From contig OZ242011.1 of assembly GCA_965204755.1 (NCBI GenBank), positions 192,001 through 256,000 on the forward strand: a DNA stretch of 64,000 nt, given 5' to 3'. Source of the DNA: Candidatus Marinacidobacterium sp. Its GTDB lineage: Bacteria; Acidobacteriota; Vicinamibacteria; Marinacidobacterales; Marinacidobacteraceae. Position 1 is the first letter of the stretch; every line of letters starts with the position of its first letter. Positions 8,469 to 61,775 of the stretch are shown here, in pieces. A model generated the notes under the pieces. That model was not told the DNA's origin, did not search any database, and saw only the letters and a list, made by a program, of their open reading frames with translations. The position numbers and the translations under genes were made by a program.

Positions 8469-10033
8469 CCTCCGCGCGGGTCGCCGGGCCGGCCTCGGGT
8501 GTCGCGCGGTACCTGCTCCCCGACCCGGCGGCGATGCGCGGGCCGGGCGCGGCCGGCCTCCGCGAGTGGGTGGAGCGGCTGGCCGTCCGGTTCGAGGCGG
8601 CCGGTTTCACCGCGCCGCCGGCGGGGGCGGGCCGGGCGCCGGAACCCCGCTTCCTCGATCCGGCTTCGCAGCCGGGGGACGAAGAGCCGCTCCTGCCGCG
8701 CGCGGAGTGGGCCGAGGCGGCGCGGTGGGCGGCGGCCGCCGAAGTCACCGAGCCGGAGCGGCAGGCGGCGCTGCTGCTCCTGACCGATGTCCTCGCCGTC
8801 GGCGCCGCGCCGCCGGTCCGCGGTCTCTCCGTACCGTTCCCGGCGGCGCTTTCCCCGGAGATGCGCCCGCCGGGGTCGGCCGGCCGCGGGAGTTGCAGCC
8901 TCGGCCTGCGCGCCTCCCTCTGGCGTCCGCCGGCGGACGGGCGGCGGAGCGTCCCCGTCGGCGAAGCCGTCCTCCGGAACCGCGCCGCCGGGGACGGCCG
9001 GGAACTCCTGGTCGGCCCGGAGTGCGTGAACGCGGCGGTGGCCGCCGCCGAGGCGGCTTCGCGCCCGCTCCGGGACCTCTTGGACGCCATCGTGGTCGGC
9101 AGCGCGGTCGGCGACTGGAGACGCCGGGCAGTCGGGCGGACGATGGAACGGCTCGGCATCCACGCCCCCGGGGCGCTCGCGCCCGTCGCCTCCGCCGCCG
9201 CAGTCACCCGCCTCCTCGGTCTCGGGCCGGAAGCGACGGCGGCCCGCCTCCGCCTCGCGGAGACACTCACCCCGATCCATCCCTACGGCGCCTTCGCCGG
9301 CGGCGCCCCGATCAAACTCCTCTACGGCGCCTGGGGGCAGTTCCTGGGACTCCTCGCCGCGATGGACGGCCCGGAGGCCTTCCCCCGTCCGGCGGCGGCG
9401 GCGACGGAAGCCGGGAACCGCTGGCCGGAGGAACCCGGGGCGGCGGTCCGGCGGATCGCCTACAAGAAGTACCCCGGATCCCGCGCCGTCCAGCCGGTCG
9501 CAGCCGCGGTGGAGCGCCTTCCCCGCTTCTCCGCGGCCGACCTCGAAACCGTCCGCCTCCTCCGGATCGAGGCCTACCCCTTCGCGGCGGAGATCTCCGG
9601 CTGGGCCGACCCGGCCCGCGGACCGATCGCCCGGCAGATGCACCTTCCCACCGCGGCGGTGATCGCCCTGGGCGCGCGGTCGGCCGGGAGGCCGCTGTCG
9701 GTCCATGACTACGGGCCCCCGCCCGGCCCCGCCGCCGCCGCGCCGGTCGCCCGCGCCGAGGTCCGCGCCCGCGAGTTCGGCGCCGACCCGGCGACCACCC
9801 GGGTGCGCCGGGCGCGGCTCTTCGTCCGGCTCGGGGACGGCCGGGAATTCGAGGCGGAAGCCGGCGCCCCGTTCGATCCGCCGCCCCCGGAGGCGATCCG
9901 CGCGCGGTTCCGCTCCCTGACGGAGGGGACCGGGCTCCGGGATCCGGGCGGGTTGCCCCCGGACGCCCCGGTCAGCGCCCTCTTCGCCGCCGGCGGAGCG
10001 GCGGCCCGGCATAAGACAATGACCGCCGCGTGA
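8465..10033 (+). CDS. Divergent MmgE/PrpD family protein
   Basis: LLTDVLAVG, HAPGALAPVASAAAVTRLLGL, IKLLYGAW and AYKKYPG correspond to the PrpD KxxHxG and KxYP regions; GTGA overlap. Confidence 0.7.
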   Translation: MTSARVAGPASGVARYLLPDPAAMRGPGAAGLREWVERLAVRFEAAGFTAPPAGAGRAPEPRFLDPASQPGDEEPLLPRAEWAEAARWAAAAEVTEPERQAALLLLTDVLAVGAAPPVRGLSVPFPAALSPEMRPPGSAGRGSCSLGLRASLWRPPADGRRSVPVGEAVLRNRAAGDGRELLVGPECVNAAVAAAEAASRPLRDLLDAIVVGSAVGDWRRRAVGRTMERLGIHAPGALAPVASAAAVTRLLGLGPEATAARLRLAETLTPIHPYGAFAGGAPIKLLYGAWGQFLGLLAAMDGPEAFPRPAAAATEAGNRWPEEPGAAVRRIAYKKYPGSRAVQPVAAAVERLPRFSAADLETVRLLRIEAYPFAAEISGWADPARGPIARQMHLPTAAVIALGARSAGRPLSVHDYGPPPGPAAAAPVARAEVRAREFGADPATTRVRRARLFVRLGDGREFEAEAGAPFDPPPPEAIRARFRSLTEGTGLRDPGGLPPDAPVSALFAAGGAAARHKTMTAA

Positions 10034-11440: not shown

Positions 11441-30868
<19,428 letters not shown>

Positions 30869-48030: not shown

Positions 48031-48060
48031 CCCTTACCGCCGTACGGGGACGAAAAGACG

Positions 48061-48122
48061 ACGGTCCGCAAACTCATCGAGGTGGCGCTGCCCCTCGATG
48101 ACATCAACCGGACGGCGGCGCG
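48061..48122 (+). pseudogene. Truncated 5' fragment of a DUF1156 DNA methylase
   Basis: 56/62 nt identical to 50121-50182; reads TVRKLIEVALPLDDINRTAAR. Confidence 0.85.
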
Positions 48123-50114: not shown

Positions 50115-52982
50115 ATGAAGACCGTCCGCAAACTCATCGAGGTGGCCCTGCCCCTCGATGCCATCAACAAGGCGGCGGCGCGGGAGAAGTCCATCCGCCA
50201 CGGGCATCCGAGCACGCTGCATCTCTGGTGGGCGCGGCGGCCGCTGGCGGCGGCGCGGGCGGTGCTCTTCGGACAACTCGTGGACGACCCGTCGGCGCGG
50301 CCCAAGTTGTTTCCGACGAAGGCGGAGCAGGACGGGGAGCGCGAGCGGTTGTTCGGGATTCTCCGTGAACTCGTGAAGTGGGAGAACACGACGAACGAAG
50401 CGTTGCTGGATGTGGCGCGGGAGGAGATCCGGGAGAGTTGGCGGAGGACCTGCGCGGACAACGCCGACCATTCGCGGGCGGCGGAACTCTTCGACCCTGA
50501 GCGGTTGCCCGCGTTCCACGACCCGTTCGCCGGGGGCGGGGCGATCCCGCTGGAGGCCCAACGGCTCGGCCTCGAGGCCCACGCGAGCGACCTGAACCCG
50601 GTCGCGGTGCTCATCAACAAGGCGATGATCGAGATTCCGCCGAAGTTCGCCGGGCGGCCGCCGGTGAACCCGGAGTCCCGGAAGGCCGCGCTGACCACGA
50701 AGGATTGGAAGGGTGCGGCAGGGCTCGCCGAGGATGTGCGGTTCTACGGGCAGTGGATGCGCGACGAAGCAGAGCGGCGCATAGGTCATCTCTACCCGAA
50801 GGTGCTGGTCACTGATGAGATGGCGGCGGAGCGCCCCGACCTGGAACCCTATGCGGGCCGGGAGTTGACCGTGATCGCTTGGCTGTGGGCGCGGACCGTC
50901 CGAAGTCCGAACCCGGCGTTCGCCGATGTCGAGGTCCCGCTCGTCTCCAACTTCCTGCTCTCCACGAAGAAGGGCAAGGAGGCGTGGGTCGAGCCGGTGA
51001 TCGAGAGCAAGGACTACCGGTTCGAGGTCCGCGTCGGGCCGCCGCCGGATGTCGAGGCAGCCAAGAAGGGAACCAAGATCGGTCGAGGCAATTTCCGCTG
51101 TCTCCTGTCCGGCAGCCCCGTGCCTTACTCGTACATCGACGACGAAGCCAATGCCGGGCGCATGGGCGTTCGTCTGCTGGCCATCGTGGCGGCGGGGGAT
51201 CGCCGGCGCATTTTTCTCTCGCCCGACTCGGAGCCCGAGACGGTTGCCCACAGCGCGTACCCCTCCTGGAAGCCCGAACTACCCAGTCGCGGCACTTGGG
51301 CGAGCAACGCTCAGGGACGCCGCTACGGCTTCCACACCTTCGGCGACTACTTCACACCCCGACAGTTGACGGCGCTGACGACTTTCGCCGATTTGGTGGG
51401 CCGGGCCCGCGAGAAGGCCCATCGGGACGCGATCGCCGCGGAGCGAAGCGCGGACGGCGCCGATGTGCGCCCACTGCGTGAAGGCGGCTCCGGCCCCGCC
51501 GCCTACGCCGACGCCGTGTCGGTGTACCTCGGGATCGCCTTGAGTCGGCTGACGGATATCTGTAACGCGCTCTGTCGGTGGAAGGAAAGCATGACGCAGG
51601 TCGTGGGCCTGTTCGGCCGACAGGCTATACCGATGGTTTGGGACTTCGCCGAGAACAATGTGTTCGCCGGTGCTGCCGGCGATTACCAGGTCAGCCTCGG
51701 GAACATGTTGAAGGCCGTAGGTCGCCTTCCCGAAGCCTCCGACGGAGTGGCCCGACAACAAGACTCCCGGAATCAGGAGGTGAGCGCGGGCAAGATCGTC
51801 TCTACGGATCCGCCCTACTACGACAACATCGGATACGCCGATCTCTCCGACTTCTTCTATGTCTGGATGCGCCGCTCACTGCAGACAGCGTACCCGGACT
51901 TGTTCGCCACACTGGCGGTTCCGAAGCGCGAAGAACTAGTCGCGACACCATACCGACATGGGAACCGGGCCAGTGGAATGGAGTTCTTTCTCACGGGAAT
52001 GAGTTGCGCCATGCGCCAGTTGGCCGAGCAAGTGCACCCGGACCTTCCGGTGACCATCTACTATGCCTTCAAGCAATCCGAGACCAGTGACGAGGGTGGG
52101 ACGACGAGTACTGGTTGGGAAACGTTTCTCAACGCTCTCATTCGCTCCGGTTTCTCGGTTACCGGCACTTGGCCGATGCGAACTGAGATGGCGACCCGCC
52201 AAGTAGGAAGAGAAACCAACGCACTTGCGTCCAGCATCGTATTGGTCTGCCGACGCCGATCAACACGGGCGTCCGCTGCGCGGCGGCAGTTCGTCGACGC
52301 ACTGACGCGGGAACTGCCACCCGCGATCGTTGCCCTCCAGAGAGCCGGTATTGCCCCTGTGGACATGGCGCAGGCCGCCATCGGACCGGGCATGGCCGCG
52401 TTCACTCGGAGAGCGCCAGTGCTACACGCCGACGGCAGCGCACTCACCGTGAAAGAGGCGCTGGCGCTCATCAACCAGGTGCTCGACGAGACCTTGGCCG
52501 AGCAGGAAGGCGAGTTCGACGCGGACACGCGATGGGCGTTGGCTTGGTTCGACCAGTACCACTTCGACGAGGCCGACTTCGGGATCGCCGAGACGCTGTC
52601 CAAGGCGAAGAACACCAGCGTCGAAGGTGTGGTCGAGGCCGGAATCCTCCGGGCGAGCCGCGGCCGGGTGCGCCTGCTCAAGCCCGAGGAACTGCCCGAC
52701 GACTGGAACCCCGCCACCGACCGGCGGCTGACCGTGTGGGAGATGGTGCATCACTTGATCCGCGTGCTCGACGCCGAGGGAGAGGCGGCCGCCGCGCAAC
52801 TGCTGCGGAGGATCGGCGGACCCGGCGAGACCGCCCGGGCTCTCGCCCACCGGCTCTACGCCATCTGCGACCGCCAGAAGCGACCGGCCGACGCCCTGCG
52901 CTACAACACGCTGGTTCGCTCCTGGCCGGAACTGAAGAGACTGGCCGAACACGACGAGGGGCGGCCGCAACCGCTCCTGTAA
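50115..52982 (+). CDS. DUF1156 domain adenine-specific DNA methyltransferase
   Basis: KLIEVALPL, HGHPSTLHLWWARRPLAAARAV, motif I DPFAGGGAIPLEA, catalytic TDPPYYDNI, ALASSIVLVCR; ATG 50115. Confidence 0.93.
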   Translation: MKTVRKLIEVALPLDAINKAAAREKSIRHGHPSTLHLWWARRPLAAARAVLFGQLVDDPSARPKLFPTKAEQDGERERLFGILRELVKWENTTNEALLDVAREEIRESWRRTCADNADHSRAAELFDPERLPAFHDPFAGGGAIPLEAQRLGLEAHASDLNPVAVLINKAMIEIPPKFAGRPPVNPESRKAALTTKDWKGAAGLAEDVRFYGQWMRDEAERRIGHLYPKVLVTDEMAAERPDLEPYAGRELTVIAWLWARTVRSPNPAFADVEVPLVSNFLLSTKKGKEAWVEPVIESKDYRFEVRVGPPPDVEAAKKGTKIGRGNFRCLLSGSPVPYSYIDDEANAGRMGVRLLAIVAAGDRRRIFLSPDSEPETVAHSAYPSWKPELPSRGTWASNAQGRRYGFHTFGDYFTPRQLTALTTFADLVGRAREKAHRDAIAAERSADGADVRPLREGGSGPAAYADAVSVYLGIALSRLTDICNALCRWKESMTQVVGLFGRQAIPMVWDFAENNVFAGAAGDYQVSLGNMLKAVGRLPEASDGVARQQDSRNQEVSAGKIVSTDPPYYDNIGYADLSDFFYVWMRRSLQTAYPDLFATLAVPKREELVATPYRHGNRASGMEFFLTGMSCAMRQLAEQVHPDLPVTIYYAFKQSETSDEGGTTSTGWETFLNALIRSGFSVTGTWPMRTEMATRQVGRETNALASSIVLVCRRRSTRASAARRQFVDALTRELPPAIVALQRAGIAPVDMAQAAIGPGMAAFTRRAPVLHADGSALTVKEALALINQVLDETLAEQEGEFDADTRWALAWFDQYHFDEADFGIAETLSKAKNTSVEGVVEAGILRASRGRVRLLKPEELPDDWNPATDRRLTVWEMVHHLIRVLDAEGEAAAAQLLRRIGGPGETARALAHRLYAICDRQKRPADALRYNTLVRSWPELKRLAEHDEGRPQPLL

Positions 52983-53056
52983 CACAAACCCGACCCTTCA
53001 GCACCGAAAGCCCCGTGGCGCGCGACACTTGCCGCAGCAGCAATGAAGCCGATCCC

Positions 53057-53539
53057 GTGGCCGACGATCCGATCCCTCGTAGTCCAGCCGGACCGGGAAG
53101 CCCACCCGCCGGGCCGTCTGCCTTTTGGGAGGAGTCGTTCCGCGACTTCGACGAGATCGCCCGCGGACTGCGGGCGCCGATCGTGGGCGAACTGTCGAAC
53201 CATGGCGTCGCCGTCGAGTTTCCCGGCGCGGGCGAAAGCACCCGACTCACCTTCGCGATCGAGGACGACGGCTCGGTCGCCTGCTGCGACCTCTCGAAGG
53301 ACGACGGCGCCGGCGGCGCTTCCCCACGGTCGACGCCTCCCTGTCCGCCGTCCGGCCCTCCTCCTTCCACCGCGCCGAATTCCTCGCCGAGTGACACCAA
53401 CCCCCCGACGCAGTCGGGAGACACGAAACTTTTTCGCACTCCCGCCCGCGCCGGACGGACCGAGCCCGCTCACCCGGCCCGGCGCGACGGATCGAGCCCC
53501 TTTGCGCGGATCGAACTTCGCGGTGGACCGAGCCCCTAA
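53057..53539 (+). CDS. Possible hypothetical protein or fragment
   Basis: N-half (FWEESFRDFDEIARGLRAPIVGELSNHGVAVEF...) looks protein-like; the rest is low complexity. Confidence 0.3.
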   Translation: MADDPIPRSPAGPGSPPAGPSAFWEESFRDFDEIARGLRAPIVGELSNHGVAVEFPGAGESTRLTFAIEDDGSVACCDLSKDDGAGGASPRSTPPCPPSGPPPSTAPNSSPSDTNPPTQSGDTKLFRTPARAGRTEPAHPARRDGSSPFARIELRGGPSP

Positions 53540-53957
53540 AGACACATGCTTGAGACACATGCCGGCGAAAAACACATGGCTACAGACACATGCCCGGCCG
53601 AGGGACACATGCTAAGGACACAGGCTCATCGGCGAAAAACACCGGCTACGGACACATGGCCGCAAAGACACAGGCTCCGCCGTTCCGGGAAGCGAGCCGG
53701 ACGAGCGCTCGACCGGACGGAACGGCGGATCGAGCCCCTTCGGGTCGTCGCCGAACGGATCGAGCCCCATGACGCCCGCCGGAGCGCACTCTCCGGAGCC
53801 GGTCATCGCCGAGGGCGCGGATTTGACAGTAACTCATTGAAAGAAAAGGACTTATGAACCAAAAACACATGGTCTCGACCTAAAGACACAGGCTAGAGAC
53901 ACATGCCGGCGAAAAACACATGCTAAAGACACAGGCTTGCCCGAAAGACACAGGCTC
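53535..53957 (+). repeat. Two clusters (9+6) of direct RACACAKG-type repeats
   Basis: Copies at 53541, 53554, 53571, 53585, 53604, 53617, 53638 (AACACCGG variant), 53651, 53667 and 53864, 53885, 53898, 53915, 53928, 53947. Confidence 0.92.
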
Positions 53958-54301
53958 CACCGGGGGGCGAGCCGGGTGAGCCCCTTTCGTGAGGTTGCCC
54001 CGCTTTCGTGGACGGGTTGCAGTTTGGGGTCCGCGTCTCGTCCGGCGGCTGCCGGAGGAGCGGACACAGTGACGACGGCCGACTTGGAGGACGCCGCCGC
54101 CGACTTCGAGCCGGACCGGAACGACTGCGGGCAGCCGCTCCCCGGGACCGCCGCCCGGACAACCGGACGGCGCAGAGACGGCCGCCGGGCGCCAAGCGCG
54201 GCTCGCGTCCGGCGGCCGCCGGCCCGCGCGTTCGGCGCGACGGGCGCGGGACACGAAGCCGGCCTCGAAGGGCCGTCAGCGGCCCCGCTCCCGGGGTGGG
54301 A

Positions 54302-54904
54302 TCAGCGAAAGAGCGACCCGGCGGCCACGACCGTGAGCGGCACGATCACGGCCCAGAACCACCGCTGCTGCGACCGCCGGAGACTCTCGAACCCCTTGAG
54401 CATCTCCGCCCGAAGCGCGAGGTTTTGCTCCGAGTTCCGGTCGGTCCGGTCCGAGAGTCGCTCGACGAGGTGTTCGAGCCGGTCCGTACGCTTTTCAAGC
54501 GCGTCCACGCGCTTTTCGAGAACGTCCAGACGGCTTTCGAGCGCGTCCAGACGGCTCTCGATCGCGTCCAGACGGCTGTCGACCCGTGCCAGGTGGCTCT
54601 CGATCGCGTCCAGACGACCGTCGATCCGGACCAAGTGGCTGTCGATCCGGACCAAGTGGGACGCGATGGCGTGGAGCGCGGTGACCACTTCCCGGTCGGC
54701 GCCGGGCGCCGCCTCGCCCTCGGGGCGGTCGGGGGCGGGCAGCGACGGGAGCGGGACGGGATTCCCCACCGCGGGCGCGGGGAGGGGCGCGGAGGCGGCT
54801 TCGGGCGGGGGCGCTCCGGCGTGGCGGTCGGTCATGGCGTCGCGATGAGCGTAGTCCGCGGGGAGGCGGACCGCAAGCGCGGCGCTGGCGGGGTGTTCGG
54901 GCAT
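54302..54904 (-). CDS. Heptad-repeat coiled-coil protein with C-terminal membrane anchor (DUF1640/CCDC90-like architecture)
   Basis: AGGAGG RBS 6 nt before ATG 54904; RLDAIES-type 7-aa repeats; WFWAVIVPLTVVAAG TM tail. Confidence 0.8.
   Translation of the reverse strand: MPEHPASAALAVRLPADYAHRDAMTDRHAGAPPPEAASAPLPAPAVGNPVPLPSLPAPDRPEGEAAPGADREVVTALHAIASHLVRIDSHLVRIDGRLDAIESHLARVDSRLDAIESRLDALESRLDVLEKRVDALEKRTDRLEHLVERLSDRTDRNSEQNLALRAEMLKGFESLRRSQQRWFWAVIVPLTVVAAGSLFR
54480..54668 (-). repeat. Imperfect 21-bp tandem repeat (about 9 units)
   Basis: GCGTCCAGACGGCTCTCGATC-like units encoding the heptads. Confidence 0.85.
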
Positions 54905-55224
54905 CGTCGTCCTCCTGACGAGAGGCGGACTCGGCTCGCCGGCGACGCGCCGGCGAACGGAATCCGCGCGATTCACTCGTTTACTGAACGGATGCGCAAC
55001 GATTTCTGCTCGCGAAAGCGCCGATTTCGCCGAAAATGCGGATAAGTCGCAATCCGCGGGGCGGCCGACCGGCCCGGTGGCCGACAGCGGTTCGACCCGC
55101 CGGCCGCGAGGCGGCGCGTTCGAAGCCCGTTTCCGACGAGCGACGGGAACCGCGGCGCAGCGCCGGGGCCCGGTCGCCAGGCGCCGGAGCGGCGCCGGCC
55201 CGGAGACCGGCGCCGTCCCCGGCC

Positions 55225-59478: not shown

Positions 59479-60630
59479 TCAGCGCGCGGCGCTCAGGGAA
59501 CTCGAAGCGGCGCCGTCGGAGGGAAACAGGCCCCGTTCCTCCAGTTCACGGCCCACCACTTCGGCGACGAGTGAGTGACCGGCCCCGGTGAGGTGCCCGT
59601 CCTTCGGGTAGTAGAGCGACTCCGGTTGCGGGTGCGCCCGCATCGCCGGCGCCACCTCCACGACCTGGCAATCCTCGGCCGCGCAGAACCGCCGCAGGCG
59701 GGCGGTCGGCGTGAGGATCGTTCGCGCCGCCGGACGCGGGAGCGGAGACCGACCGAGGGCGCGCTCCGTCTCGACAGTCCGCCATCCCCGGTTCTGCGGG
59801 ATGTAGAGGAAGACGATCCCGGCATCCGCCCCGGCGCTCAAACGCGCCATGCGGTCGAGGGCGCCCTCGATCCGCGCCCAAATCGCCTCTTCGTCCTCCG
59901 CGGGTTCGAGACCCGCATCCCGCGCATCGCCGGCCGCCGCGAAACCGATCAGGATGCGCGCGACGCCCGAGCGGAGATAGAGCCATCTCCCGAGGTCCGC
60001 CCAGTCGCCGAGTCGATCGGTGACCAGGTAGCCGCGCGACACCCGGAGGCCGGCGAGGCCCCTCCGGGTGTCCTCGACATCGTTCGGGGCGATGCCGACG
60101 AGCACGAGGTCGGGCCGGAATTTCAACCCGTAGTGTTGGAGCACCAAGGTTTCGGGTTCGGGCCAGTAGCGGGGTACGGCGAGGTTGATGGCTTCCACCC
60201 GGCGCGCGGTTCTCGCGTCGAGCGCCGACTCGAGTCGCGCGAGGAATGTCGCGTCGTCATCGACGCCGACGCCGTAGGTGAAACTGTCGCCGATGCCCAC
60301 GATCCGGAAGGCGCCGGGCGGCTTCTCGAACGGCCGGTCGCGGCCCCGGAAGCCCAGCGAGTTGTGGGTGTAGCGGACATCGAATTCGTCCGTTCGGACC
60401 CTTTCCGTCCGGTCGGCGTCCAACTTCCACGGAAGGACGGCGTCCGCCGCGAAGCCGTGGTCGCGGGGCAGCGGCGGCGCGATCCCGAAGACGCGCACGG
60501 CGGTCTCCAGGGCCGCCGGAACGAATACGGCGCCGAGGGCGAGAGCCGCCGCGGCGAAGCGCCGCGAGCGCCGACGGGGGGGGGGGGGGGGGGGGGGGGG
60601 GCTATTCGCGCCGCCGGCGAACCGGCTCAT
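59479..60630 (-). CDS. SGNH/GDSL hydrolase (acetyltransferase/esterase-like), copy 2
   Basis: NSLGFRG, GDSFTYG, PND, DGHLT..GH; N-terminal TM. Confidence 0.9.
   Translation of the reverse strand: MSRFAGGANSPPPPPPPPRRRSRRFAAAALALGAVFVPAALETAVRVFGIAPPLPRDHGFAADAVLPWKLDADRTERVRTDEFDVRYTHNSLGFRGRDRPFEKPPGAFRIVGIGDSFTYGVGVDDDATFLARLESALDARTARRVEAINLAVPRYWPEPETLVLQHYGLKFRPDLVLVGIAPNDVEDTRRGLAGLRVSRGYLVTDRLGDWADLGRWLYLRSGVARILIGFAAAGDARDAGLEPAEDEEAIWARIEGALDRMARLSAGADAGIVFLYIPQNRGWRTVETERALGRSPLPRPAARTILTPTARLRRFCAAEDCQVVEVAPAMRAHPQPESLYYPKDGHLTGAGHSLVAEVVGRELEERGLFPSDGAASSSLSAAR
60576..60601 (+). repeat. G26 homopolymer (C26 on the coding strand)
   Basis: Counted directly. Confidence 0.9.
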
Positions 60631-61775
60631 CGCGCTGCGCCCGGAGGGCTCGAAGCGGCGCCGTCGAAGGGAAGCAGACCCCGTTCCTCCAGTTCACGGC
60701 CCAACACCTCGGCGATGAGCGCGTGACCGGCCTCCGTGCAGTGGCCGTCCTTCGGGTAGTAGAGCGACTCCGGCTGCGGGTGCGCCCGTATCGCCGGCAG
60801 GACATCGACGACCTCGCAATCCCCGGCCGCGCAGAACCGCCGCAGGCGGGCGGGCAGCGTCGGTCGCGCTGCCCGACGCGGGAGCGGGAACCGACCGAGG
60901 CGCGCTTCTTCCGCCTCGACGGAACTCCACTCCCCGTCCGGGATGTACAGGAAGACGATCTCGGCATCCACCGCGGCGCTCAGGCGCGCCATGCGGTCGA
61001 AGGCGTCCTCCATCCGCGCGTCCCTGGCGTCGGGACTCGCATCCCGCGCGTTGCCGGCCGCCGCGCGCCCGATCAGGACGCGCGCGACATGCGAGCGGAG
61101 ATAGAGCCATCTCCCGAGGTCCGCCCAATCGCCGAGTCGATCGGTGACCAGGTAGCCGCGGGACACACTGGAGCCGGCGGCGCCCGTCCGGGTGTTCTCG
61201 ACATCGTTCGGGCTGATGCCGACGATCACGAGGTCCGGGCGAAACTTCAAGCCGTAGTGTTCGAGCACCAGGGTTTCGGGGTCGGGCCAGTAGCCCGGTA
61301 TGGCGAGGTTGATCGCTTCCACGCGGCGCGCGGTCCTCGCGCCGAGCGCCGCTTCGAGTCGCGCGAGATAGGTCGCGTCGTCATCGACCCCGATGCCGTA
61401 GGTGAAACTGTCGCCGATGCCCACGATCCGGAAGGCGCCGGGCGGCTTTTCGAATGGCCGGTCGCTGCCCCGGAAGCCCAGCGAGTTGTGGGTGTAGCGG
61501 ACCTCGAATTCGTCCGTTCGAACCCGTTCCGTCCGGTCGGCTTCCATCTTCCACGGGAGGACGGCGTCCGCCGCGAAGGCGTCGTAGCGCGGCAGCGGCG
61601 GCGCGATCCCGAAGGCGCGCGCGGCGACCTCCAGGGCCGCCGGAACGAATGCGGCGCCGAGGGCGAGGGCCGCCGCGGCCAGGCGCCGCGAGCGCCGAGG
61701 GAGCCCCCCCCCCCCCCCACTCCGAAGTCGGACTTCATGCCGGCCGGTCGAGAACGGGAGGGAGGGGCGCTCCAC
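60627..61775 (-). CDS. SGNH/GDSL hydrolase, copy 1 (tandem paralogue)
   Basis: Same motifs (GDSFTYG, PND, DGHCT..GH); GAGGA RBS before GTG 61775. Confidence 0.9.
   Translation of the reverse strand: MERPSLPFSTGRHEVRLRSGGGGGLPRRSRRLAAAALALGAAFVPAALEVAARAFGIAPPLPRYDAFAADAVLPWKMEADRTERVRTDEFEVRYTHNSLGFRGSDRPFEKPPGAFRIVGIGDSFTYGIGVDDDATYLARLEAALGARTARRVEAINLAIPGYWPDPETLVLEHYGLKFRPDLVIVGISPNDVENTRTGAAGSSVSRGYLVTDRLGDWADLGRWLYLRSHVARVLIGRAAAGNARDASPDARDARMEDAFDRMARLSAAVDAEIVFLYIPDGEWSSVEAEEARLGRFPLPRRAARPTLPARLRRFCAAGDCEVVDVLPAIRAHPQPESLYYPKDGHCTEAGHALIAEVLGRELEERGLLPFDGAASSPPGAAR
61704..61718 (+). repeat. C15 homopolymer (G15 on the coding strand)
   Basis: Counted directly. Confidence 0.9.

Follow-up and report, generated by a model that had tools for sequence, protein, structure and literature searches.

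A one-directional array of paired 8-bp repeats that appears to belong to a lineage-specific, STAR-like family dispersed on an acidobacterial chromosome

We analysed a window of 64,000 nucleotides in which one intergenic gap carries fifteen direct 8-bp repeats. Sequence comparison indicates that this array is one copy of a lineage-specific, dispersed family of direct repeats, and that it belongs to a kind of element that is already known. The family itself is apparently undescribed; no literature on the genus name, or on interspersed repeats with IHF in Acidobacteria, was found in a search that covered mainly sources outside the subscription journals. On our best reading the family is STAR-like, has grown by slippage, and is probably bound in trans by a protein together with IHF. 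What we consider most probable, and hold only tentatively, is a one-directional mosaic repeat family whose putative protein-bound cores and IHF serve an architectural role.

The mechanism we propose starts from a building block in which two RACACA(T/G)G cores, spaced 13-14 bp, are followed by a longer linker, giving a period of 29-35 bp; an IHF-like motif often stands ahead of the block, 8-9 nt from its first core. Such blocks expand and contract locally through tandem duplication of units, pairs and 300-340-bp modules. Copies occupy intergenic gaps, in most cases directly behind a same-strand gene, and they often border an accessory or defence patch. A DNA-binding protein whose gene lies elsewhere on the chromosome may recognise the conserved cores, with IHF perhaps bending the adjoining DNA. 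On this view the element would resemble a BIME-1/RIB-type architectural site in its action, made of direct repeats, and would not control the adjacent methylase.

The initial annotation of this DNA counted nine cores and six, in two clusters and in a single orientation. This is correct: all fifteen are on the plus strand, 14 of them exact RACACAKG and one AACACCGG (Table 1). The whole window has 15 exact matches, against a mean of 2.47 and a maximum of 9 in 100 shuffles, and for the intergenic stretch 52983-54300 the count is 14, where shuffles average 0.05 and reach at most 2 in 2000. The core spacings are 13, 17, 14, 19, 13, 21, 13 and 16 in cluster 1 and 21, 13, 17, 13 and 19 in cluster 2. 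Short and long alternate in all 11 of the adjacent spacing pairs (permutation P=0.003), which bears out the earlier suggestion of paired sites. CRISPR had been set aside on the basis of the intervals and we agree. A CRISPR array requires repeats of 23-55 bp with unique spacers of similar length, whereas here 8-bp cores are separated by linkers of 5-13 nt; Rfam gives no match to the array, and no Cas family occurs among the scanned ORFs.

Comparison with other genomes indicates that the array is real, non-coding DNA, as the initial annotation had held when it saw no convincing ORF there. The 103-aa ORF across cluster 1 has a single match among 12 candidates, a predicted protein (P0001) from another contig. 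P0001 maps to window frames 2, 3, 1, 2, 1 and 2 at 73-100% identity per segment, and it is without part of the window array. The array DNA is therefore conserved in another genome, with altered unit content, whereas the frame, which switches five times, is not. The homologous copy in another contig also excludes an assembly artefact. As for a coding repeat, the minus-strand ORF over cluster 2 has no homologue among 92 candidates (proteins of similar length only), and across the family 23 of 120 spacings are divisible by 3. ORFs called across these arrays are spurious, which is a warning for annotation.

The internal structure of the element points to duplication. A block of about 48 bp had been reported as shared by the two clusters; it proves to be 44 nt at 95% identity within a longer match (Table 1). 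When 53441-53770 is aligned locally with 53711-54010 the score is 134, whereas shuffled sequence reaches at most 46; each cluster with its leading motifs is thus a degenerate copy of a single module. Two further features had escaped notice. The first is a second motif class, with five copies of GGA(T/C)CGAGCCC and one variant, which may be a decayed IHF-like motif judging by its resemblance. The second is an IHF-like site in the spacer, close to cluster 2. The IHF consensus is WATCAANNNNTTR. A table in PMC6907758 prints this sequence on its H-NS row, apparently swapped with that of IHF. The block at 53385..53441 is probably the 5' part of the mosaic.

Table 1. Coordinates of the array, its component motifs and the adjoining genes in the window.
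Feature	Position	Strand	Details
DUF1156 methylase, HmaB of the Hma system	50115..52982	+	PADLOC 1462 bits, full length
Decayed small gene, family of ~140 aa	53015..53394	+	27-residue gap and frameshift relative to homologues
57-bp block with degenerate GACAC cores	53385..53441	+	84% to the L007 uppS-cdsA gap (8648-8701, minus strand)
Second motif GGA(T/C)CGAGCCC, three copies ahead of cluster 1	53457..53536 (starts 53457, 53489, 53525)	+	
Cluster 1	53541..53674	+	nine cores, short/long alternation; pairs 13-14 bp apart, linkers 5-13 nt
Duplicate pair, clusters 1 and 2	53535-53613 and 53879-53956	+	86% over 79 nt
Cluster 1 tail	53667..53716	+	shared with the L001 array at its end (81% over 42 nt, cores masked, E 0.007)
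Second motif, two copies within the spacer	53727..53768 (starts 53727, 53757)	+	
IHF-like site	53830..53842	-	one mismatch to the IHF consensus; within feature 53830..53854
Weaker IHF-like half	within 53830..53854	+	putative; stops 9 nt ahead of the first cluster 2 core
Cluster 2	53864..53954	+	six cores; degenerate duplicate of cluster 1
Second-motif variant after cluster 2	near 53975		
Convergent coiled-coil (heptad-repeat) gene	54302..54949	-	closes the intergenic gap

The 189 bp between the clusters had been called an AT-rich, promoter-like core. This is true only in part: the spacer is 35% A+T, and only the 44 bp at 53820-53863 are AT-rich (68%). The spacer contains TTGACA yet gives zero sigma-70-like promoters, the sigma-54 pattern has zero matches, and the DnaA-box pattern has none in any of the five elements discussed below. 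The best terminal inverted repeat is a match of 11 nt (53468 and 53981) that 21% of random window pairs equal and that is missing from the related arrays; we regard it as a chance match. No TGT-type terminus beside the arrays is common to the loci. The window element has no match in the phage collection and only short GC-rich scraps, all outside the array, in the plasmid collection.

GTDB species genomes were scanned with a three-copy pattern, which gave 85 loci. Four of these match the window element beyond the 8-mer by blastn at E<=1e-3. All four (L001, L007, L056 and L081) are on OZ251549.1, a chromosome of Ca. Marinacidobacterium sp. (Acidobacteriota, class Vicinamibacteria), where they span 1.95 to 4.16 Mb. 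Ca. Marinacidobacterium is a marine, sponge-associated genus. The BLASTn and clustered-core scan proposed in the initial annotation thus recovers relatives, and the array is not unique. In tetranucleotide signature the three long loci of OZ251549.1 are nearest to the window among the 59 loci of at least 10 kb (r 0.83-0.88, next 0.70), and composition and shared sequence together suggest that the window and OZ251549.1 are kin. AGCT, CTAG and ACGT are almost absent from the window, L001, L007 and L056 (~5-10% of expectation, with no AGCT in the window sample), a scarcity hinting at long-standing restriction or methylation pressure in the lineage.

The family as sampled comprises the window and four extra loci on one related chromosome, L081 with only ~300 bp of flank. 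The five loci hold 131 cores, 0 of them on the opposite strand. The related arrays have one, two or four clusters per locus, and linkers across the family run from 3 to 16 nt. Only 5 of 75 distinct linkers are common to more than one locus, while two non-core blocks are common to the window and OZ251549.1. One of these blocks has its partner in the 790-bp uppS-cdsA gap of L007, where five degenerate minus-strand cores accompany it; the strict pattern therefore misses part of the family. This gap holds a decayed, opposite-strand relative. Replichore polarity was uninformative: the order of array strands along OZ251549.1 is minus, minus, plus, plus, and about half of random patterns would do as well; local GC skew agrees in three of the four arrays.

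The arrays have grown locally by tandem duplication at three scales: single units, pairs, and whole modules of 300-340 bp. For 65% of 111 units the most similar linker is found at the same locus, where permutation gives 25% (maximum 37%). A 338-bp module is repeated in L007, and in L056 a 1-kb tandem array (9000-10000) of a 32-bp second-motif unit is directly joined to the core array. Growth is accompanied by modest evidence of constraint. Four paralogous comparisons show 12 substitutions in 236 core sites and 60 in 543 non-core sites, so cores are substituted about half as often as linkers, in pairs that are non-independent and with cores partly chosen by match. The IHF-like motif, allowing at most one mismatch, has 21 matches in 126,431 bases, all inside the elements and at four of the five loci, and in the window, L001 and L007 it stops 8-9 nt short of the first core. 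However, 16 of the 21 are copies of one L056 tandem unit, L081 has none, and the per-locus shuffle P ranges from 0.04 to 0.17 (0.11 in the window), which tells against our own reading. The initial annotation had proposed a cis-acting protein-loading array. The element has now been found elsewhere, and its less substituted cores and IHF-like motif keep that proposal plausible, with the loading itself still putative.

Much of this would also follow from a neutral compound minisatellite, in which words of 6-7 nt multiplied by slipped-strand mispairing in harmless gaps with no protein partner. We regard this as a serious alternative, though a rather doubtful one. The family spacings cluster at 13-14 (40 of 120) and 19-21 (56 of 120), and the short and long spacings sum to a pair period of 29-35 bp, roughly three helical turns. 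They alternate in 65 of 109 cases against 50.5 expected (P=0.0015). Adjacent cores mostly lie off the same helical face (24 of 120 spacings are in phase) and a period of 6.5-7 fits better than 10.5, a pattern that sits poorly with an architectural site and also suits slippage of 6-7-nt words. Other simple repeats, 26 G in a row and about 30 copies of CGG, are tolerated in the window, as are decayed genes. Near-perfect 7-periodic arrays of the same words make up 57 of the 85 scan loci, in unrelated phyla, with autocorrelation of 0.7 or more. However, the four related loci are not 7-periodic (0.29-0.35), which tells against a heptameric simple repeat at these loci. The greater conservation of cores than linkers, the fixed distance of the IHF-like motif to the first core in two genomes, and the non-core blocks common to both genomes also argue against the neutral account. 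Heptameric simple repeats of bacteria are near-perfect, intergenic 7-mers of variable copy number (PMC4692102). The family shares with them the words GACACAG/GACACAT, the intergenic placement, often just after a stop codon, and the variable copy number; it differs in being a compound of pairs, variable linkers and modules of 300-340 bp. The near-perfect GACACAG/GACACAT arrays of the scan lie between genes in many unrelated phyla, and three of them adjoin four-helix-bundle (23S rRNA IVP) genes. That family, at 3 occurrences, does not dominate the 122 nearest ORFs of the other scan loci, and neither does any other.

All five arrays occupy intergenic gaps, and four follow a co-oriented gene, L081 among them. 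Three of the four that are fully flanked (the window, L056, L001 and L007) lie between convergent genes. L001 lies between divergent genes, and this speaks against the reading we favour. Three of the four also border methylase or defence patches. At L056 the neighbours of the array are a Fic gene and an oxidoreductase. An orphan hmaB also occurs there, at a distance of 1.5-2.9 kb, on the other side and on the other strand. The L001 array fills the gap that separates a DUF5916 gene from an island containing Dcm, HNH and two NOV_C genes. This defence island (L001 2-8740) also has a GHKL ATPase/histidine-kinase fusion, and its NOV_C genes match PADLOC PDC-S36. The fourth array, in L007, marks a likely inversion point between convergent cdsA and rseP, which are normally co-oriented. 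L007 7424-14223 has dxr and rseP in inverted orientation with respect to uppS and cdsA, the four-cluster array being at the junction. The link of the arrays to methylase patches is therefore not nil. Such closeness counts against a purely neutral or purely architectural reading, and a host-architectural role alone leaves it unexplained.

A recombination module, relic or active, would account for these positions: an IHF site with paired direct repeats at island borders, amplified by slippage and served by a recombinase in trans. We think this unlikely, but it has points in its favour. All four fully flanked arrays are at junctions, the window array being at the edge of a lower-GC patch with hmaB, a 5' relic of hmaB and a decayed gene. 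IHF sites neighbour arm-type and TnsB sites, and in integrase att arms and Tn7-like ends, which occur at island borders, an IHF site stands next to short direct repeats. Against it, the window has no integrase, transposase or tRNA and the three 20-kb loci have no integrase or transposase. No inverted partner array is present at the other edge of the window patch, and there is no common terminus or terminal repeat. An att arm or a Tn7-like end would differ from this family in having far fewer copies, a core site or terminus, a partner end and a recombinase; we rejected this identity because recombinase gene, terminus and partner end are absent within the window or the 20-kb loci. A stronger version, in which a self-amplifying recombination or landing module that has no recombinase gene of its own and is read in trans marks and helps create junctions for the turnover of defence cargo and the inversion of core operons (cdsA/rseP, L007), strikes us as slightly less likely again. 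If the recombination module is real, the arrays would be chromosome-wide, non-palindromic rearrangement hot spots with a cognate enzyme.

One locus outside the family offers a lead to the same idea. Cystobacter fuscus L008 (9647-10060) has three 13-bp direct repeats with GACACATG, 20 bp inside TGT and spaced by 13 and 17, as are the first three cores of the window. They lie at a small-island edge upstream of a cassette of an excisionase-like HTH_17 gene and DUF488, which the recombination account can claim, and they are possibly the end of a mobile element. L008, however, has no homology to the window element at E<=1e-3 and its other end was not found, and neither the L008 segment nor the L007 array gave anything useful in the phage and plasmid collections.

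The initial annotation had instead likened the array to plasmid R1 parC and to iteron origins, and had raised the possibility of a methylation-read switch tied to the DUF1156 methylase. We believe this whole model is very improbable. Two clusters do surround a short AT-rich stretch with an IHF-like site, and hmaB is within 3 kb in two of the four fully flanked loci, with the Dcm island bordering a third. But the context is chromosomal, and there is no par or rep gene in the ORFs scanned, no DnaA box and no promoter. In R1 parC ten 11-bp repeats, five on each side, flank a 39-bp promoter within a plasmid operon that also has parM and parR (PMC2241845). The likeness is that direct repeats form two groups separated by a gap. 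Here the sets are 9+6 irregular 8-mers spaced 13-21 bp around a 189-bp GC-rich gap without a promoter; parM/parR and parA/parB are missing from the scanned window ORFs, the setting is chromosomal and multi-locus, and the two clusters, being one duplicated module, become one, two or four in the related arrays. A layout of the parC type is not supported. An iteron origin was rejected for its part on the absence of a Rep family and of a DnaA box and on the small share of spacings in phase; its AT-rich stretch would be the 44 bp at 68% A+T with the one-mismatch IHF-like motif, for which the per-locus P is 0.11.

The methylation-read switch is likewise weak. The geometry seen in the window is not kept at L056, and no hmaB lies within ~10 kb of L001 or L007; both points speak against a dedicated switch. 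One of the 85 scan loci yielded HmaB. CATG is present in 9 of the 14 exact cores because core position 7 is T or G. The window HmaB is an orphan with 73% nucleotide identity to the orphan copy in L056, and no HmaA helicase (Snf2) or HmaC ATPase (DUF499) family occurs among the scanned window ORFs. In its passages on HmaB, PMC11232893 reports no effect on phage infection, gives no target motif and does not demonstrate methylase activity. The array had been placed about 550 bp after the methylase gene; the gap is indeed 559 bp, but it is not empty, since the decayed small gene lies in it.

An element acting as RNA would be transcribed by read-through, as a 3' UTR or a small RNA, and its repeated, unpaired ACACA words would load Rho or titrate an RNA-binding protein in the manner of CsrB. 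We consider this improbable, though the strictly one-directional cores and the co-oriented gene ahead of four of the five arrays would fit it. The array strand has more C than G at all five loci, and the convergent junction in the window has no intrinsic terminator on the plus strand. The C excess is small, however (1.04-1.6 fold), and the IHF-like DNA motif would be unexplained. Csr RNAs carry a GGA motif, and the cores have none. Rfam gives 0 matches at the gathering threshold and 0 at E<=1 in a local search, and the element folds no better than shuffles (z -1.6 and -0.96).

We return to the architectural reading and its nearest relatives. In organisation the family seems closest to the STAR elements, without being STAR. 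STAR elements of Staphylococcus aureus are lineage-restricted, dispersed intergenic direct repeats with a 14-bp motif and spacers of 40 bp or more (PMC3532100). Both are dispersed intergenic direct repeats with a conserved motif, locus-specific spacers and expansion and contraction, and in both the dispersal is unexplained. Motif and phylum are unrelated, and here there is an 8-bp core, linkers of 3-16 nt, pairs, a second motif and an IHF-like site. The REP and BIME-1/RIB elements of E. coli are an extragenic mosaic in which an IHF site lies beside repeated units, the palindromic REPs alternate, and a RAYT transposase is involved (PMC2817692). The family is likewise an extragenic, chromosome-dispersed mosaic, and a putative IHF site lies beside its units at four of the five loci. 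It is not a member, since palindromic alternating units are lacking: 0 of 131 cores are inverted and there is no hairpin signal, nor is there a RAYT in the scanned flanks. MITEs of the Correia/NEMIS and CIR type are dispersed and intergenic and may carry an IHF site or a methylase motif, with terminal inverted repeats and fixed length (PMC2229807). Intergenic dispersal is shared, and so perhaps is the IHF site, but terminal inverted repeats and a fixed length are not evident here. A MITE, which would call for terminal inverted repeats and a target-site duplication, was rejected, the best inverted match being equalled by a fifth of random pairs.

If the architectural reading is right, the family would be a direct-repeat counterpart of REP/BIME in a little-studied lineage of Acidobacteriota, and the paired 8-mer with its IHF-like site would be a precise bait for the binding protein. 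It bears on a point left open for STAR-like repeats, namely how they spread and why their cores are kept. The arrays would serve as strain-variable markers, and if the junction bias is real they suggest a route for the turnover of defence islands. If the repeats are neutral, they are a genus-level minisatellite only.

The window DNA is chromosomal, since it holds the ribosomal L13 and S9 genes and, from their translations, what we take to be rpsB, tsf, pyrH and frr. Pfam was searched with 30 window ORFs, 29 ORFs from three related loci, and 83 + 95 further ORFs from unannotated stretches of all four; the further ORFs include all of at least 130 aa there under 4 kb and those of at least 55 aa near the arrays. 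No Par, Rep, integrase, transposase, Cas, HmaA or HmaC family was found in the scanned ORFs of the window and the three related loci, and the window has 0 tRNAs. GC drops to 0.62-0.69 across 48-54 kb, a patch that contains the DUF1156 5' relic, a SAM methyltransferase, the DUF1156 gene and the decayed small gene. The relic, 66 bp at 48057-48122, is 2 kb upstream of the intact hmaB, with 89% identity to 50117-50182 and 84% to the L056 gene, and it suggests repeated arrival and loss of hmaB at this site.

The decayed small gene was considered as the cognate binder and dropped because no homologue is known beside the other arrays. Its family has 5 close homologues and 34 representatives at E<=0.001, with no match in Pfam, NCBIfam or PADLOC. 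An intact homologue gives a predicted alpha/beta model (pLDDT 88) with middling fold matches: Mediator Med17C (Z 8.6, rmsd 2.7, 92 aligned), the immunity protein TriTu (Z 7.8, rmsd 2.4, 78 aligned) and T4 MotA (Z 6.5-6.7). These matches point to no function either way.

The remaining observations concern other genes of the window. The coiled-coil gene beyond the array has a 21-bp DNA periodicity, and two similar genes occur at L007 1361-3599. A giant gene at 11597-30868 (+) encodes 6423 aa; its product, probably a surface adhesin, contains some ten near-identical repeats of 231 aa and gives no fewer than 27 Calx-beta matches. The CGG tract (~30 times, 28252-28342) lies inside this gene, and the run of 26 G (60576-60601) lies near the start of an SGNH-hydrolase gene; both are possibly phase-variable tracts. 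At 59479-61775 (-) there are two adjacent, near-duplicate SGNH/GDSL hydrolase genes.
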